Program-made: the position numbers and the translations under genes
The notes under the pieces: model-generated
What the model was told of the DNA's origin: nothing
The model's database searches: none
Seen by the model: the letters and a program-made list of their open reading frames with translations, nothing else
In this document: positions 12,201 through 42,924 of the stretch, one piece after another
Layout of the letters: every line of letters begins with the position of its first letter
Position numbering within the stretch: the stretch's first letter is position 1
Assembly: GCA_964016885.1 (NCBI GenBank)
Contig: OZ024740.1
Location: 376,588,001-376,652,000 of the forward strand
Reading direction: 5' to 3'
Length of the DNA stretch: 64,000 bases
DNA from: Eledone cirrhosa
Taxonomy: Eukaryota

Positions 12201-13072
12201 ATCTTCATGAGAAAACTTACGAACATAAGCATATTACTTTTGCTATCAATGTCAATATTAATTAAAACATCTTATCAAATACATTTACTTCTTAAGTATT
12301 GAAGGTTGAATTTGATTAGTATACAATTATAGATGCTGTCTGCTGGTAATATTTGCTAATTATAGTCCTCATAACGGTCACTCAGATTTTAATTGCTTCA
12401 TGAAGAGAGGAAACAGTTTGGTTCAAGTAGATGGATTAAAATACGCCACTTCACGATGTATTAATATCTTTGGACTTTGAGAGGGCGTTGCTTTGCAGAA
12501 TCGATATAGCAATGGACAAAATTCCTTACGGTATTCTATATATCCGTTTACATATATAATTCTATTGCGATTTATATATAATTGTCGTAGATGTTCCACT
12601 ATATATATATAACATTCTGAGATTTATATTTAATTATAATATTTGTTAATTAAAATAAATTTTATTCAACTTTAAAGAAACGCCAAGAAGCGTGGTCAAA
12701 TAACAAAATAGTCACGGGTATCCCAACGAATTCAGTGGTATAAAAAAATAAGGGTATTTCAACAGGAAACTGAAACAAAATCAGGTATCAGTTAACCAGA
12801 AAATTATGGCATTTCTTCCACTATCAAATATGTTGCTCATAGTGTAATTTTATGTTAAATAAAAAAGTCATTTTATTTATGCTGCGATATAATATAGTAT
12901 TTCCAGTATCGAATAATCGCACCATTAAAACGAGGATTTCCTTTCAAAATTCCTCTGCTACAATTATACGTTGTATATGATATCTTTGCGTATTTCATGG
13001 TTTTATACCAGTAACATTTAAACAAAATATTATGTCATTATAATGTACGAAAAAGGTAAAGAAATAATGGGA

Positions 13073-13113
<41 letters not shown>

Positions 13114-13859
13114 CGATGGGAGAAGAGGAGAACATATTGAGAGGAAGGCAAAACTATGATTATAGACCTCTTATAACTCCCGGTATATATTTATTTCGTT
13201 TTTCGTTCCTTTAATTTCTGCTTTCCAACGTTCCTTCAGTGAAGAAACGCAACTGCCAGTAATGCAATGATATTGATTGAAAATATCTGGGAATGACTAC
13301 ATGATAATGACAATAACGGCCTTTTACACTGTATCAAAGTGAATATTCTTAGGAAGTACTTTTGCTGAAAAGGACACAAACTAATTTCAGGTACACCAAA
13401 TTAATGTTTGCATCGATGTAATTTGGTAAAACCATTAGACAGTCGGAAAAGTGTTTTGTGGTGTTTGTGTCTACTCTCTGCGATCTGATTTCAAATCCCA
13501 CTGAACATAATGTAGTAGTACAAGTTGGTTGTATTGGCAGAATTGCCACTGCCCATTGCGCTGTAAATTCAAATCGTAGTGGCTTACATGAGAGGTAGAA
13601 TTAATCAATCGCCCCTTTTAACACCATTCCCTTGTTGTGAATAGCAGCAAGTTCTCCTAGAAATTCCAGAATAAAGAAAAACATCATCGGATAACATACT
13701 CAGAAAGCAAGACGGTGTATATATGACGCAATAAGGGATTGCCCCAACCAGTTTCACCTTCAATAACATAAAGTATAATTAGAGATTATTGTTAAATATA
13801 TAAATTTAAATATATATAATTCTCCGTATATTACTGGTAACTAATTATTACAGTTCAAC

Positions 13860-14040
13860 GGGCGGTGGATTGGCAGTATTGGTAGTGGATCGGACACCAT
13901 GCTTTGACGCATTGAGTTACGGCCCTTGCCATTCTGAGTTCAAATCCCGCCGAGGTTAACTTTGCCTTTCATCCTTACGGGGTCGATAAAATAAAGTACC
14001 AGTAATTGCTGGCCTTGTGACTAACGTAGAAACAATTATT
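13860..14040 (+). mobile_element. Full-length SINE copy with target-site duplication
   Basis: Starts GGGCGGTGGATTGGC. AATTATTACAGTTCAAC is present at 13843-13859 and 14034-14050. Confidence 0.92.
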
Positions 14041-17762: not shown

Positions 17763-20359
<2,597 letters not shown>

Positions 20360-33585: not shown

Positions 33586-36500
33586 TATTATTATTACTAT
33601 TGTTATTACTCTTTGAGTCTCAGTCATTGATGTTAGTTAATTGGAAAGTTTGTTGAGATGAATATCAAGCCACTACCTGCAGCCTCAGATATTCAGGACG
33701 TATGGGAGGGTTCTTGCTGTTCCCAGCAAGCATGCCTTTTGAAGCGTTCCAAAAAGCGTGATGGGGCCGATTTTCTTTAACCATCCCTGGAAACTTTTGG
33801 AGATAGTCCCCAGTGCGCCTATGGCAATCGGGATCACTTTGACTTCATGGCAGTTCCAAATCCTTTTTACCTCCCACTTTAAGTCTTGGTATCGGTTAAT
33901 TTTCTCGCTCTCCTTCTCTTGCACTCTCGTGTCGAATGGGCAGGCCACATCCACAATCAGACACGCTCTTTTTTCTTTGTCCACAACCACCAGGTCAGGT
34001 CTATTGTGTTCCAGTTTCTTGTCCGTCTGTATCCTAAAATCCCACAGCACCTTCACCTGATCGTTCTCCATCACCGCCTCTGGCTTATGCTCATACCATT
34101 TCTCAGAATGTGGTAAATTGTTTACTTTGCACAGGTGCCAGTGGATCACCCTGCCCATCACATCATGTCTCCAGCCCTTATAGTGGGCCTGGGCTAGGTG
34201 TTTACACTCGGATACAATGTGAGCCACAATCTCCTCTCTCTCTCCACAGATCCTGCACAGTGGGCTAGCCTCCTCCTTGTAAATATGGTGTTTCAACCAC
34301 TTCATTTTGAGGGCCTGCTCCTGCGCAGCCATTAACATTCCTTCTGTAGCCTTTTTGAGGTCTCCTCTTCTCAACCAGTTACATGTCTGTGGATCTCTAA
34401 ATTCAGTTTTATCAAAGAAGGTACTATGAAGGGATTTTCCCTGAAGGCTGCTCTTTCTCCTTGATGTTATTTCCTCCTTGGACATCCCCTGGCCTACTGT
34501 CCCCTCCTTCAGTACAGTTCTGAGCATTGGCTCCTTACTATCAGTCACGTATTTGTATAAGTTGTTTTTCTCCATCTGAACACAGTCCTCTATGCTGATA
34601 AGACGTCTTCCACCCTCAGATCTCCTTAGGTAGAGTCTATCGACATCACTCCTCTCGTGGAAAATGTTGTAGATAGTCAATAGCTTCCTAGTCTTCCTAT
34701 CCATTTCTTTTTGTTCAGCGACATTCCATCTCAGAATTCCCGCACTGTACCTAATAATAGACACAGCTCGGGAATTTACTGCGCTTATGGCATTTCTGCT
34801 GTTCAGGTGTGACTTCAATACGCTCCTTACTCTCTGAATGTATTCAGTTCTTAACAATTCCTTCATTTTTTTGTTCTTTATGCCATCAGCCTCCAGAACG
34901 CCCAAATACTTGTATCCTTCCTCAGAGTCAATTTCCTTTATCATCTCACTTGTTGGTATCTGGATTACGTTACTTCTGCTCAACCTACCCCTCCTCATCA
35001 CAATGACTCCACACTTACTAATATCAAACTGCATACATATATCACTGCTGAAAATGCGGACAGTATCAACAAGCAGATCCAACTCCTTCTCACTCTTCCC
35101 GAAGAGCTTAAGATCGTCCATGAAGAGGAGGTGATTGATGGTAAGCTCTCCCTTTCCCAACTTGTATCCTGCTCTCACTTTTCGCAGCATAATGGTTAAG
35201 GGCATCAGGGCAAGGACAAACAACAGAGGGGACAGGCTATCTCCCTGGAAGATACCTCTCTTGATCTTCACGCTTCCCAAGGATTCTCCAGTTGATGTCA
35301 ACTCTGTCTCCCAGGACCCCATACTCCTGCCCAGCAACTGTCTGATGTTATCTGCCACCTTGAAGATCTCCAGGCTTTTGGTGATCCAAGAGTGAGGCAC
35401 CATGTCAAATGCCTTTCTGTAGTCTATCCATCCCATGGCAAGATCAGTGTGTCTCCTCCTGCAATTCCCCATTACCATCTTATCAATAAGTAACTGGTCC
35501 TTTGTACCACGTGACTTCTTTCGGCATCCTTTCTGTTCGTCCGGTAACAAGTTGTTTGTGTGGAGGTGATGGTAGATTTCCTCAGACACAATGCTCGTCA
35601 ACAGTTTCCACATTGCGGACAGACATGTGACAGGTCTATAGTTGGTAACATCATTACCCTTGATTCGGTCTTTCATTATCAGAACTGTGGTACCTTTTGT
35701 CAATCACTCTGGCACCTCACCCGACACCAAGCAGTCATTGAACATGGCCGTCAGTTTCGGGTGGAGGGATGTTAAATGTTTAATCCAATACCCCTGCACA
35801 CCATCTGGGCCTGGTGATTTCCAGTTGGTTAGTTTTTTTGCCTGCCCCTTAAGAGTTTCAACTGTGATACTCAAATCAGTTTGTTGTTGTGCCTGCTCAC
35901 CGATCTCCCTCTGTACTGTCTCAATCCACCCTGCCTGGACATTATGTCTAACATCCTGTTCCCATATTCCTCTCCAGAATGATTTAGTTTGCTCCGCCCC
36001 AGGGATCAAGTCGTTGCCTCTTTCTTTCCCCTGAAGCTGTCCAAACAGCATCTTCTGGTTGTTGTCGAACATGCGGTTCTGTTTAGACTGACTGACTCTG
36101 TTCTCGTATCGCCTGATTTTTGCACTCTTTGCTACAATGCGTTGCTTCAGTTCCTCTATGATAATATTTCGCTTTTTCCTCCTAGTTGTGTATTTTATTT
36201 CCAGTCTATTTTTAGTGCCTATGTTTTTTAGTGTCCCATTCAGTAGTGACTCAAGCTTTCCTTTGTCATTTCTCATTTCCCCGATTTGCCCACTCAGTCG
36301 CTTCTTCCACCACGGCTCTGCTCTTTCTTGTCTGTTGTTTCCTCTCGCTTTTATACCAAGTAGTTTCCTCACCGTATTTGCTGTTGCTTTGAGGATATTG
36401 TTGCACTGGTGAAGGCTCCTAGCCCCAAGGTATGGGATGACTTTGTTTACCTTAGCTGTTGTTTCTTTTAACTTTTTCCTGTCTACAAATCTTAGGTTCA

Positions 36501-37240
36501 TAGGTCTCCCACTATCATTGTTCAATTCGTCTACCACTAAATTTAGGATGTCAACCGAATCTTGTCCCAGCCCGTCAGCATTCATCTCCTCAGTGGCCGT
36601 ATCTCTGTTCCAGGTATTATTTATCTCAGTGTTCAGATCATTGTCTGCTTCGGGTGGTTCCTCCGTTCTCTCGACCTCTACACCTTCATTTCCCACTGGC
36701 TCGTTTGTCTGGCATACTACACCCTCCATCTCCAAGCTATCCTCTCTGCTCAGTTCCTCCAGTTCCAGCTCGCTAATCCACCCATTAGTTCTTATTACCC
36801 GAGCCTGCCCGGCCAATTTTTGTTCATCTAATTTAAATAGACCAATCTCGTTCCAGATGTTATGCATCCGTCTCCTGTAGCCCCTCTCCTTGGGGTTACT
36901 TTTCAGGTAACATTGCATAACAGTTCTATTCAATTCTTTCGTCCAGTTGGTTCTGGCCCCTTTCCTTCTTCTTCTTCCTCCAACACCAGCAGTATTTGGT
37001 TGACAGTCAGGTTCCTGCTGCTAAGCCAGGGGGCACCTGTTGGGTGAGAGTCTGTCACATGACGTTTTAGTCTCCATTTCACCGTTATTCGAACTGTTTA
37101 GGTTCGATATTTAAACACTCTTATCGAGGATTGGCGAATGTATGGTTACATAGCCATCTGTGGATTCACCGTTTCCGGTGGTTGCGCCGTTCCATTTGGC
37201 ACTTGTGTAGCATTATCACCACGCTGTAGACGAACACAAA
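33583..37240 (-). mobile_element. Near-intact R4/Dong-clade non-LTR retrotransposon (single ORF: RT, CCHC knuckle, RLE) with (TAA)n 3' tail; 5' boundary uncertain
   Basis: [74 protein letters not shown]. 3' end runs into TAA repeats, the known Dong target. Confidence 0.95.
33685..37077 (-). pseudogene. R4/Dong RT-RLE polyprotein (~1130 codons), interrupted only by in-frame TAG (37023-37021) and TGA (35706-35704)
   Basis: The 409-aa and 672-aa ORFs are in the same frame, separated by one TGA. The frame continues upstream through one TAG to an ATG at 37077. Confidence 0.88.
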
Positions 37241-38178: not shown

Positions 38179-38185
<7 letters not shown>

Positions 38186-38242
38186 TAAATTAATAAAAAT
38201 AATGAATAAAAACAAAGAAACAGTTCCTTATATTAAAAAATT

Positions 38243-38383
38243 CATCATTTTACGATCGTTTCTAGGATATATATATGTGTGTTAGTATGTATATCATATA
38301 GATCTATGTAAATTTTTACAAACTATCAGAGGGAATATACATACCTACACATATATATATATATGCTGTCTTCAGAAATAATG
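38243..38383 (-). ncRNA. Type I hammerhead ribozyme with ~100-nt stem II (left arm)
   Basis: Reverse complement of the 42591-42728 motif; core intact. Confidence 0.82.
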
Positions 38384-41300
38384 ATATTTGTTTATTGAAA
38401 AAACCCAACAAATATTTAATATAATAGGTCTGTTTGGGAACAGGTTTTGAATTGACCAATAGAAAGGCAGTAAGTGGTCAAGATGGTAGAATAGTAGTAA
38501 TAGAACTTTAATTTAGGGGTAGAGGAAAGCAGATTTCAGTTTTGAATGGAAAGAGTATAATGAATGAAAAGATTATTTTGGGGATGAAAATAGGTCAAGT
38601 CGGTAAAAGGTACACGAAAAATTGATGTTATAAAAGAATAATGCTAATGTAAATATCTAAGGAGAATAAAATTTCACGATAAACGTGTTAGTGAAAAATA
38701 TCAATCTTATTCAAAATATAAGGAATTTACATCTATAAAAAGAAAATAAATTAATTAAATTGATAGGTATATTTATATTGATAAATTTATATTAATTCAT
38801 ATAGATATGATAAATAAGAGTTAGATGTAAATGAAGAGTGCTCTTAAAAACGATGGGAAAATAAAAAAATTATTATTATTATTATTGGGGGGATGGGTAA
38901 ATTTATTAGTGAGAAATAACAAATTTATATAGATTATAAGGAATATAGATTCATAACCTGAAATTAAAATATTTTATATGCATACTTATTGGTAAAAGAT
39001 AGCTTTAAAAGGGAAATAAAATTATGCAGTTCATTAGTAGTAGAATATTAATTATAGGTTAACTAATTTTAAAAAGATGTTATTATAATAATTTGTAAAG
39101 TGTATATTAATTAGGTTTATAATATTTAAAAGTTCTTCTCAATTTATGATTACATGATATAATTAATTCCTGTCGCTTATTTAATAGGATATCCTTAGAT
39201 TTCATTATTTCAAAAAGTTCCTGGGAACATAATCTACATTCATATCTATTATTTTGATAAGGGGTGGCCCTTTTTAGCACACTCCAGGTCAGGTTATAAT
39301 CTTTATTCCTTTTTCTATAATTATTAATTATTTCATCTAAGGATGTTTTATTAGCTAATGCAGCATTTTTAACACTGTGTTTGTGGGTATTAAATCTTAC
39401 TTTAAAATGGTTAGAAGTAGCTCCTATATATGAATAAGTTGAGTCCTTAGTGTTAATTTTACATTTATATACTATGTTATTGATAAGGCAATTTCCTTTT
39501 AATGGCAATTTGCTTTGTTTCTACATTTACAACCTTTCGTGAATGCTGTATCAGAGGAGATAGTCAAATTAGGTGTGGAATTTTCACGACTTGTTGTATG
39601 TGAATGAGATGGTAGTTTGCTTTGGTTTATTTTAGTATTATGGTTAGTTTGATGTATTGGTGGTATACATTTATATGCATTATAGGCACTTATATTTTGT
39701 TTGAGTAGGAGAATTTAACCGTTGATCTATTTAAAGTTTGATGGTATTTATGGTTTGGCGGGAGATTTTTCTCTAGGATAGCAAAAATTGTTTAGGTATA
39801 TTATCTTTAATTTGTAGATTAAATGGAGCATTATACCAAGTAACTCGTCTATTACGGTTTCGATGTTGTTTATTATTTTTATAGGATGTATCCTGATGTT
39901 TATTAAGAGAATTAGTGTTAGTGATTTTATTACACATATTTTTAGTTAGATTCATTGATTTAGGTGTTTTAGCCTGTTTGTTAGGAATTTTGTTATTAAC
40001 ATATATTGGAGTATTAGGATGAATGGTTTTTTCAAAGATACTATATTGTATATTAGAAGAGTTAGAGAAATTAAGTTTTATGTTGGTATTTTGGGGTATA
40101 GTGTGAGTGGCATTTAGATGTGTATATTTCATTTGGTGTTTGTTGGTAATATTGGGTTGTATGTTTGTAGTGTTATTGGTACAAGGTATATATACTAATT
40201 TGTTTTTGTGGCCACTTCTAGCTAAAGCTTCGTTATAAAAGGCCGCAGTTTTATCAAATACATCCTGGTTAGACGAAAGGTTAGAAATTCTGAGTGAGAT
40301 ATTATATGCTAGGTCTTTAAGGATAGATTTAGGGTGATTAGATTGTGAGTGTATGTAATGTAAGCTTTGGTTAGGTTTATGGTAAGGTTGGTAGATACCC
40401 GTAGATAAGTCTAATGTTATATCAAGGAAATTAACTACTTTACTTGTGTTTTCAAATGTAATATCTAGACTATAATAGTCTTTGAGGAAAGTTCTAATAA
40501 GTTTTTATTTTTTTCAATTTCTGATAGGCTAATGTTATTGGAAAGAAGAAGACACTCGTCACGATATAAACCTGGGGAAAAGAAGCATTTATGTTAAATA
40601 GAATAAAGAGGCCCACAAGATCGGTAATTTGTGCAGAATCACTAGATCCCATAGTAATGTTGAATAGATTACTATATGTGTTTCTGGTCCAGTATTCTTT
40701 CTGAAATTCCAGTAGTGTTTGTCTAGCATGTGTGATAATATTAATGTCATCCATAGTTAAGTTTGACCTATTTTTGGCAAATATCAAGGCTTTGTTCAGG
40801 AGTATAGGTGATATAGAGGAATAATAAGCATCTATATCGAATTGTAGAAATGAAGCAGAAGATTTATTTCTAATGTTAGTAAACCAGTTAATTACCTGGG
40901 ATGTGTTTTCCCAGAGTGGTAAATTAACATGTTTTCTTAATTGTGGGATGACTCTATCTAAAAATGTTTTACTAATGATGCCAATGTCAGATTTGGAAGG
41001 CATATAAGCCTTATAGAAGGATTAGAGTTAAAATTAGAATTGTGATCTTTCAGGTTAAAATGTGGTTTTTTCAGTGCCAAAGGTTCAGTTCTATCTTCAA
41101 TATTAAGTCTATTTACTATGTTGTGTGTTTTGTTGTTGATGTTGGTAAGTGCCGCATTGTTTGTTTTTTTTATCATTTTTCGTGAGTTCTTTATATATGA
41201 ACTCATTGTGCAAATTCCACACCTAATTTGACTATCTCATCTGATACAGCATTCACGAAAGGTTGTAACTGTAGAAACAAAGCAAATTTCCCATTAAAAG

Positions 41301-41910: not shown

Positions 41911-42100
41911 GGGCGGTGGATTAGCAGTATCGGTAGAGGGTCGGACGCCAAGCTTTCCAGCATAGTTACGTCCCTTTACGATCTGAGTTCAAATCCCGCC
42001 GAGGTTGACTTTGCCTTTCATCCTTACGGGGTCGATAAAATAAAGTACCAGTAATGCACTGGGTAATTGCTGGCCTTGTGCCTAAAGTAGAAACAATTAT
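41911..42100 (+). mobile_element. Full-length SINE inserted in one arm of the inverted repeat
   Basis: Absent from the mirror position (~38870-38890), which holds a plain (ATT)n tract. Confidence 0.93.
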
Positions 42101-42590
42101 TATTTTTTTTATTTTCCCATCGTTTTTAACAGCACTCTTCATTTACATCTAACTCTTATTTATCATATCTATATGAATTGATATAAATGTATCAATATAA
42201 ATATACCTATCAATTTAATTAATTTATTTTCTTTTTATAGATGTAAATTCCTTATATTTTGAATAAGATTGATATTTTTCACTAACACATTTATCGTAAA
42301 CTTTTATTCTCCTTAGATATTTACATTAGCATTATTCTTTTATAACATCAATTTTTCGTGTACCTTTTACCGACTTGACCTATTTTCATCCCCAAAATAA
42401 TCTTTTCATTCATTATACTCTTTCCATTCAAAACTGAAATCTGCTTTCCTCTACCCCTAAATTAAAGTTCTATTACTACTATTCTACCATCTTGACCACT
42501 TACTACCTTTCTATTGGTCAATTCAAAATCTGTTCCCAAACAGACCTATTATATTAAATCTTTGTTGGTTTTTTTTCAATAAACAAATAT

Positions 42591-42728
42591 CATTATTTCT
42601 GAAGACAGTATATATATATGTGTAGGTATGTATATTCCCTCTGATAGTTTGTAAAAATTTTACATAGATCTATATGATATACATACCAACACACATATAT
42701 ATATCCTAGAAACGATCGTAAAATGATG
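42591..42728 (+). ncRNA. Type I hammerhead ribozyme with ~100-nt stem II (right arm)
   Basis: cattattt-CTGAAGA-[..tatatatatgtgt.ggtatgtatat...atatacatacc..acacatatatata..]-GAAA-cgatcg-TA-aaatgatg: 8-bp stem I, palindromic stem III ACGATCGT, GUA cleavage after 42720. Confidence 0.85.
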
Positions 42729-42924
42729 AATTTTTTAATATAAGGAACTGTTTCTTTGTTTTTATTCATTATTTTTATTAATTTATCTTGACTCTGTTTT
42801 CCTGTATTTTTCATCGAAAAAAGTTTTGAATACATCTTCTCTTTTCATGATGTTCGGATTACATTGAGTTCTTCATACGGATTGGACACTACCGTACATT
42901 TTGGTAGATTTATCTACACACATA

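Follow-up and report, generated by a model that had tools for sequence, protein, structure and literature searches.

Hammerhead motifs with an expanded and conserved domain II in Hydra-clade Penelope-like elements of Eledone cirrhosa

We analysed a stretch of 64,000 nucleotides of the Eledone cirrhosa genome (hereafter the window) and identified, at the ends of both arms of an inverted Penelope-like element (PLE), a type I hammerhead motif in which the two core boxes are separated by a structured domain II of more than 100 nt. More than ten thousand copies in the genome hold the predicted shape of this long arm while its letters change, and the arm is therefore likely to have a job of its own. 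Our preferred reading of these sequences, to which we give a probability of about 60%, is that the motif is a selected, slow, dimer-dependent ribozyme, likely to use its long arm as a protein-binding platform for the particle formed with the RT-endonuclease. The interest of the system lies in the family and not in the copies of the window, which are broken relics. The features of the window are the following:

42590..42729, plus strand: right-arm type I hammerhead, whose domain II is expanded (sequence; fold z=-4.89)
42590..42598, plus strand: stem I 5' arm, where the 5' ends of copies cluster (sequence)
42599..42605, plus strand: core box 1, CUGAAGA (C3-A9; sequence), with U3-A8 in sister family C
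42606..42708, plus strand: domain II, a 103-nt spacer with C.A, 2 bp, a 1x1 pyrimidine mismatch, basal helix, middle helix and apical motif
42643..42670, plus strand: conserved apical motif, with a GAU/AUC helix, a 4x3 internal loop ANUU/UAG, a UGUA/UACA helix and a variable terminal loop
42709..42712, plus strand: core box 2, GAAA (sequence)
42712..42719, plus strand: palindromic stem III, ACGATCGT (sequence; duplex energy)
42718..42720, plus strand: GUA cleavage triplet, with the predicted cut 3' of 42720
42721..42729, plus strand: stem I 3' arm (sequence; compensatory changes between families)
38242..38384, minus strand: second hammerhead copy with a 106-nt domain II, left arm (sequence; fold)
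38185..41206, minus strand: left arm, a 5'-truncated, broken Hydra PLE with RT, endonuclease, a 3' UTR of ~0.75 kb, hammerhead and tail to (TA)n
39107..39560, minus strand: GIY-YIG endonuclease at the C terminus, with a CxCx5C linker, a frameshift in this copy and no CxxC from GIY to YIG
41208..~42916, plus strand: right arm, an inverted 5'-truncated copy with endonuclease, 3' UTR, hammerhead, tail to 42786 and ~130 nt of 5' UTR, then CA/TA repeats
41912..42095 (approximate ends), plus strand: SINE within the right-arm 3' UTR, missing from the left arm and from other copies

The core CUGANGA / GAAA / NUH with an open stem I is that of a type I hammerhead. The original prediction had described the two core boxes, a stem I, a palindrome in stem III and a rod-like spacer between the boxes, and sequence and fold bear out this description, except that stem I has 9 bp with one G.U pair instead of 8 bp. 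The motif was also said to be present in both arms, which is the case: the minus-strand copy has CUGAAGA at 38375 and GAAA at 38262, separated by 106 nt. Both helices named for the rod are found within the predicted structure. The spacers of the right and left arms fold with z = -4.89 and -4.97, respectively (0/200 shuffles equally stable), and the two basal pairs of domain II have a pairing probability of only ~0.5. Stem III of the monomer has only 2 bp and contributes almost nothing to the fold (-37.3 vs -37.1 kcal/mol); the 8-mer forms a self-duplex at -10.0 kcal/mol, so the palindrome is suited to a dimer, as had been anticipated. No loop could be placed at the canonical distance for a loop I-loop II contact, and there is only the conserved 1x1 mismatch at step 4. 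The expectation that length-limited searches would miss such a motif was accurate: an Rfam scan of the window at gathering thresholds gave zero matches, and the core-only descriptor of PMC8557442 permits 7-17 nt. The window also contains a short hammerhead-like core at 20164-20200, with an 11-12 nt spacer and a palindromic stem III AACAATTGTT, which recurs at two other loci (L054, L066).

Judged from its coding sequence, the host is a Hydra-clade PLE with the endonuclease after the RT. It had been labelled Naiad-type, a label that we reject: according to PMC8557442, the endonuclease of Naiads is N-terminal and canonical hammerheads are missing from them, whereas here the RT precedes a C-terminal endonuclease, Hydra signatures are present and the hammerhead core has all three stems. 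A single ORF with the RT before a GIY-YIG endonuclease at the C terminus is seen in the fragments of the window and in two other loci, L205 and L209, where the frames are unbroken (827 and 830 codons, with the ORF starting at residue 18). The latter also have YRDD and the CxCx5C linker, lack a pair of cysteines between GIY and YIG, and show CxxC and CxH flanking the conserved E and N. Together with L113 they carry the RWR and SDKT motifs (family A1 and C copies), before which the window copy is truncated. The endonuclease strings are CNCRNKANC in the linker, VYKC...YIG without CxxC, and CRLC...E...N...CNH. The signatures of the Hydra clade are described in PMC8557442 (section 11) as an RWK-type motif, DKT in place of DKG, the CxCx5C linker, the lack of CCHH cysteines between GIY and YIG, and CxxC/CxH; insertion in (TA)n, another Hydra trait, is also observed here.

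Hydra elements are generally short (<3 kb) and have a canonical hammerhead, according to the same source, whereas here domain II is non-canonical and the 3' UTR has ~0.75 kb in family A and ~3.5 kb in family A1. This is a departure from "generally short" and not an exclusion from the clade. A Pfam scan of four ORF fragments gave zero matches above the cut-off. In a tree of 63 metagenome relatives, which has no outgroup or named reference clade, the four rows from the genome share one long branch. Where copies are arranged in tandem, ~280-350 nt separate the hammerhead from the start codon that follows it. Family A1, with its unbroken Hydra ORFs of ~810 aa and a 3' UTR far longer than in described Hydra elements (L205, L209), was likely active recently. 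A separate non-LTR retrotransposon ORF adjoins the PLE in the window (33685-36933, minus strand); it is in two frames of 409 and 672 aa, and has an RT and, by eye, a C-terminal restriction-like nuclease motif.

We searched the genome (~3.0 Gb) for this motif with both boxes and the stem III sequence fixed, and used the reversed pattern as a control. Spacers of 99-129 nt gave 11,568 matches, against 12 in the control, and the motif is thus not due to chance. Other spacer lengths were much less frequent: 1,474 matches vs 4 at 68-98 nt, 108 vs 14 at 37-67 nt, 126 vs 7 at 6-36 nt, and 119 vs 7 at 130-160 nt, the last being mostly junction duplications. The form of the core with U3-A8 has 1,224 matches (13 in the control), which overlap part of the 1,474 set. 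In family C, a CTGATGA box was discarded as a false box inside stem II, and the true U3-A8 box is eleven bases upstream. Altogether, cores with a long domain II number roughly 13,000-14,000, distributed in several families, counting only those with this stem III sequence. Rfam and spacer-limited descriptors can overlook such a population of predicted ribozymes, and it follows that the numbers of hammerheads in the literature may be too low, as may some "no HHR" calls.

Short hammerheads coexist with the long ones. Canonical families with a 20-nt spacer and the same stem III palindrome are present in the same genome (L059-L070), and pairing across families through this common palindrome is conceivable. 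Among 78 Hydra-type metagenome loci, 56 yield a core with a stem I of at least 3 bp, and the credible spacers have 10-25 nt; three matches with longer spacers (68, 142, 145 nt) were rejected as they resemble coding sequence.

Families A, A1, E, D and C carry the long form. Identity to the endonuclease of the window is 83% for A1, 83% for E, 66% for D and 58-60% for C. The covariation across genomic copies that the original prediction had proposed as a check is indeed observed, with compensatory substitutions between families in stem I and in the basal helix of domain II, as expected for stems I and II of a hammerhead. Stem I with its anchors is 97.9% paired and has 12 double changes (0/500 shuffles as good, in a control that ignores the relatedness of the copies). 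Since MAFFT places the basal helix out of register in D and C, this helix was omitted from the stem I alignment test and tested without gaps, in the register given by the boxes: at steps 5-11, 110/112 cells are paired in 16 representatives, family G included, and sliding the register as a control leaves 13-61% paired. The pairs themselves are A-U/U-A (AU repeats) in A, G-C in D and a third set in C.

In the core, the mixed combinations C3.A8 and U3.G8 have 96 and 91 matches at spacers of 95-125 nt, against 11,568 C3-G8 (spacers of 99-129 nt) and 1,224 U3-A8, and they are scattered over the families as decay would give, with the exception of one local tandem cluster. Family C carries U3-A8, and position 7 varies freely in this U3-A8 family. 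The swap occurs naturally and is known to be active (PMC3088659, section 8; PMC4209133), and may represent a single event. A short Hydra hammerhead with U3-A8 was also found in a metagenome contig (L376:2103), where the swap probably arose independently. In domain II, the apical motif is matched in 14 of the 15 representatives of A, E, D and C, the sole miss being a deletion copy. Its columns are conserved in the alignment with zero double changes, a pattern that a role at the DNA level might also produce. Taken together, the compensatory changes, the U3-A8 swap, the rarity of mismatched cores and the retention of the apical motif speak for selection acting on the catalytic fold as well as on the long arm.

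Where copies begin bears on whether the ribozyme cuts. The 17-mer of the tail has 13,886 matches in the genome, and we scored 5' ends in the first 100 listed, which all come from the start of one contig. Among these, 32 begin within 8 nt of C3. Four of them are SINE junctions at -7, three of which displayed element sequence upstream, and were removed. The remaining 28/100 begin in the stem I 5' arm and correspond, by our count, to 18 independent insertions. The others begin 13-15 nt (3 copies), 16-50 nt (9), 51-250 nt (8) or beyond 250 nt (34) upstream, inside the motif (10), or 5-14 nt past the cleavage site (4). No copy among the 100 starts 3 nt or less from the cleavage site, which leaves the predicted RNA 5' end at 42721 without genomic support, and nearly all long copies retain an intact junction there. 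Since stem I accounts for 28 of the 100 starts and the cleavage site for none, the copied RNA is likely to have been uncut or rejoined and to have begun just before the ribozyme. The genome thus indicates where the copied RNA is likely to begin, and this is not at the cut.

The most frequent 5' end is the A of TC/ATT, 7 nt before C3 (42592), in a context that we take to resemble the initiator consensus. The 5' ends of E, D and C copies also cluster in stem I. A G at -8 occurs in 16/63 non-SINE junctions (by eye; three are possibly templated), a hint of the trace of a cap, and a hexamer resembling a downstream promoter element is present at +28 in family D only and was disregarded for that reason. 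A TATA-less internal promoter in the pseudo-LTR has been described for Penelope of D. virilis (PMC2377424). The start-site reading is indirect, since 0/50 of the copies starting in stem I run into the ORF: the longest reaches 313 nt past the cut, and ~20 have only ~150 nt of flank. An alternative is that the RT is stopped by the structure, which would also place 5' ends in stem I.

Other junctions involve the same region. The SINE seen at 41912-42095 of the window is repeatedly found in the stem I 5' arm of family A/E hammerheads (L034, L284, L287, L291, L208). In these cases the sequence of the element continues upstream of the insertion, and the target seems to be duplicated. There are 2,018 non-native junctions, and 37 of the first 100 are of this type; none of the cases listed is of family A1. 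At some 5' junctions (L161, L138, L166; matches with spacers of 130-160 nt) the first 10-30 nt are re-copied in short repeats that restart in stem I, which suggests re-priming of the RT at the template end. At the other extremity, copies end ~63 or ~200 nt past the cut, and most head-to-head pairs hold one of each.

The absence of starts at the cleavage site among these 100 copies, together with the intact junctions, is what one would expect if the hammerhead fold were kept as a structural signal, for RNA pairing or recognition by the RT, and cut rarely or never in vivo. The base of stem II is in line with this: instead of an R10.1-Y11.1 pair, usually G-C, there is C.A at 10.1-11.1 (step 1) in 14/21 representatives, covering families A, A1, most of E, D, C and G. 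According to PMC4209133, in vitro cleavage by PLE hammerheads is poor, and that paper leaves room for other functions. Yet the 3-8 pair and the NUH triplet, which matter for the active conformation, are both kept, and position 17 is only A, U or C in representatives and patterns, although the search itself demanded this. Furthermore, natural exceptions with U.U at the base of stem II are known (PMC3088659), and many Hydra hammerheads with U.U there are listed as canonical (PMC8557442). We consider a non-cutting signal unlikely. The choice between a cutter and an RNP scaffold is directly testable with short constructs.

It is also rather improbable that an ordinary ribozyme simply tolerates domain II as a passenger, such as an old hairpin insertion of MITE type, selected only for its paired base. 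Any insert needs a paired base, which by itself would produce the basal covariation, copies with internal deletions exist, and short canonical families with the same stem III live in the same genome. However, domain II holds a length of 99-116 nt across the representatives of A, A1, E, D and C, while the flanks of A, D and C share as little as 42-66% identity with one another. The apical motif, more than 30 nt away from the core, is retained. The mismatch at step 4 is kept too, being C.C in most families, and a pyrimidine mismatch recurs there even in family G, dissimilar though it is. There are few matches with short spacers (126 and 108), and none of the deletion forms listed has been amplified into a family.

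The architecture of domain II does differ in families B and G, which is in favour of the passenger. In family B it has 95-98 nt and is branched, unlike the A-type rod. It is 95.3% paired, with 7 pairs showing a double change; 0/500 shuffles do as well on score and percentage, and 37/500 match the count of double-change pairs. By eye, family B shows the strands of the apical internal loop in swapped order. An ORF of a Neptune/Nematis-type PLE is present near B hammerheads on the same strand at L185/L412 and inverted at L405 and L403, with a weaker match at L187, among 25 B-family regions searched. Unrelated Hydra-type ORFs also occur near some B loci, and the tie of family B to a Neptune/Nematis-type PLE is tentative. 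Family G (L081, L073, L093, L200) has a domain II of 63 nt, of unrelated sequence, built on the same base of C.A, 2 bp and pyrimidine mismatch. Family F (L128, L168, L191, L192, L415-L418) is older; it has the same stem III, together with a domain II that is long and decayed. No host ORF was found at the loci of families G and F.

A rod that mimics or reads the microsatellite target, as the original prediction had suggested from its TA/TG-like helices, is very improbable. In its favour, the basal helix of family A consists of an AU dinucleotide tract, and (TA)n is where the element inserts. Against it, the basal helices of families D, C, B and G do not resemble microsatellites, yet a (TA)5+ run follows the cleavage site at a distance of up to 400 nt in 24/28 copies of C, 9/9 of D, 24/28 of B and 7/7 of G. 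Hydra elements whose hammerheads are short have (TA)n targets too, which PMC8557442 links to the endonuclease linker, and the tract of the window copies has been lengthened relative to most copies. The microsatellite look of the rod is incidental. As for the suggestion that the rod might bind the RT, the conserved apical motif would fit this role better than the TA/TG tract.

We thus return to a slow, dimer-dependent ribozyme with a protein-binding arm. Under this model, transcription would start at the initiator-like TC/ATT 7 nt before C3, so that one ribozyme would stand right at the 5' end of the transcript and another at its 3' end. The two motifs would pair via the 8-nt palindrome to build stem III, in agreement with the weak 2-bp stem of the monomer and the self-pairing energy given above, and with the dimer cleavage model for hammerheads with a weak stem III (PMC4209133, PMC6765202). 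Cutting is predicted to be slow, given the C.A at the base of stem II and the lack of a loop-loop contact, and the RNA that is reverse-transcribed would be mostly uncut or re-ligated. The constant length of domain II, its distal conserved motif and the fixed neighbouring priming sites suggest that it may bind a protein, most simply the RT of the element itself, and the apical motif could help to place this RT at the adjacent fixed priming points.

A bolder version, which we hold as doubtful, sees domain II as an RT-recruiting RNA module grafted on a hammerhead, loosely comparable to the protein-binding arm of telomerase RNA, with the palindrome pairing two RNAs that are both copied at one (TA)n. 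If true, the copying of paired RNAs would explain the head-to-head insertions with one +63 and one +200 arm, and the swapped strands of family B would indicate that the module arose twice or moved between clades. A SECIS or kink-turn reading of the apical motif was rejected, as the spacing is wrong (by eye).

PLE hammerheads, palindromic stems III, U3-A8 cores and moderately long loops 2 (in Selaginella) are already known. We found no report of a structured domain II of ~100 nt in PLEs in the literature searched. Core boxes parted by a large insertion also occur naturally in the rodent discontinuous CLEC2 hammerhead, which is a single-copy mRNA element and not a retroelement. The main text of a 2026 repeat annotation of Octopus vulgaris, in the part available, has no mention of ribozymes.

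The elements described here resemble the Hydra-clade PLEs of Craig et al. 2021 (PMC8557442 and its File S2) in having a type I hammerhead near the 3' end with the same core, a frequent mismatch at the base of stem II, a C-terminal endonuclease with a CxCx5C linker, (TA)n targets and an inverted 5'-truncated partner copy. However, all Hydra motifs in File S2 have a stem II of 3-7 bp with loops of 3-10 nt, compared with 99-116 nt for domain II here, and that of Hydra-1_oBim is short and different. Neither the present stem III string nor the start of the ORF occurs in the part of the supplement covered. The metazoan PLE hammerheads of Cervera and de la Pena 2014 (PMC4209133) share the pseudo-LTR site, the weak palindromic stem III, the natural U3-A8 variant and the presumed cleavage as dimers, but their "larger than usual" helix II has 7-8 bp, against ~30-40 predicted bp with internal loops here, where stem I is also longer (9 bp) and C.A replaces G10.1-C11.1. 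Selaginella PLE-X1 (File S2 of PMC8557442) also has deviating hammerheads with a long loop 2 (35 nt, 29 nt), but at around half the length, in EN-less plant elements for which the text covered describes no structured conserved arm. Naiads, in the same source, share the (TA)n targeting, pseudo-LTRs and inverted arrangements, and in some of them the two halves of the core are separated by 35-50 nt ("HHR_half_core"). PMC8557442 describes what hammerheads do in PLEs with an endonuclease as unclear, and the more than ten thousand copies described here provide a natural mutagenesis series in which the core, stem I and the long arm can be traced across families.
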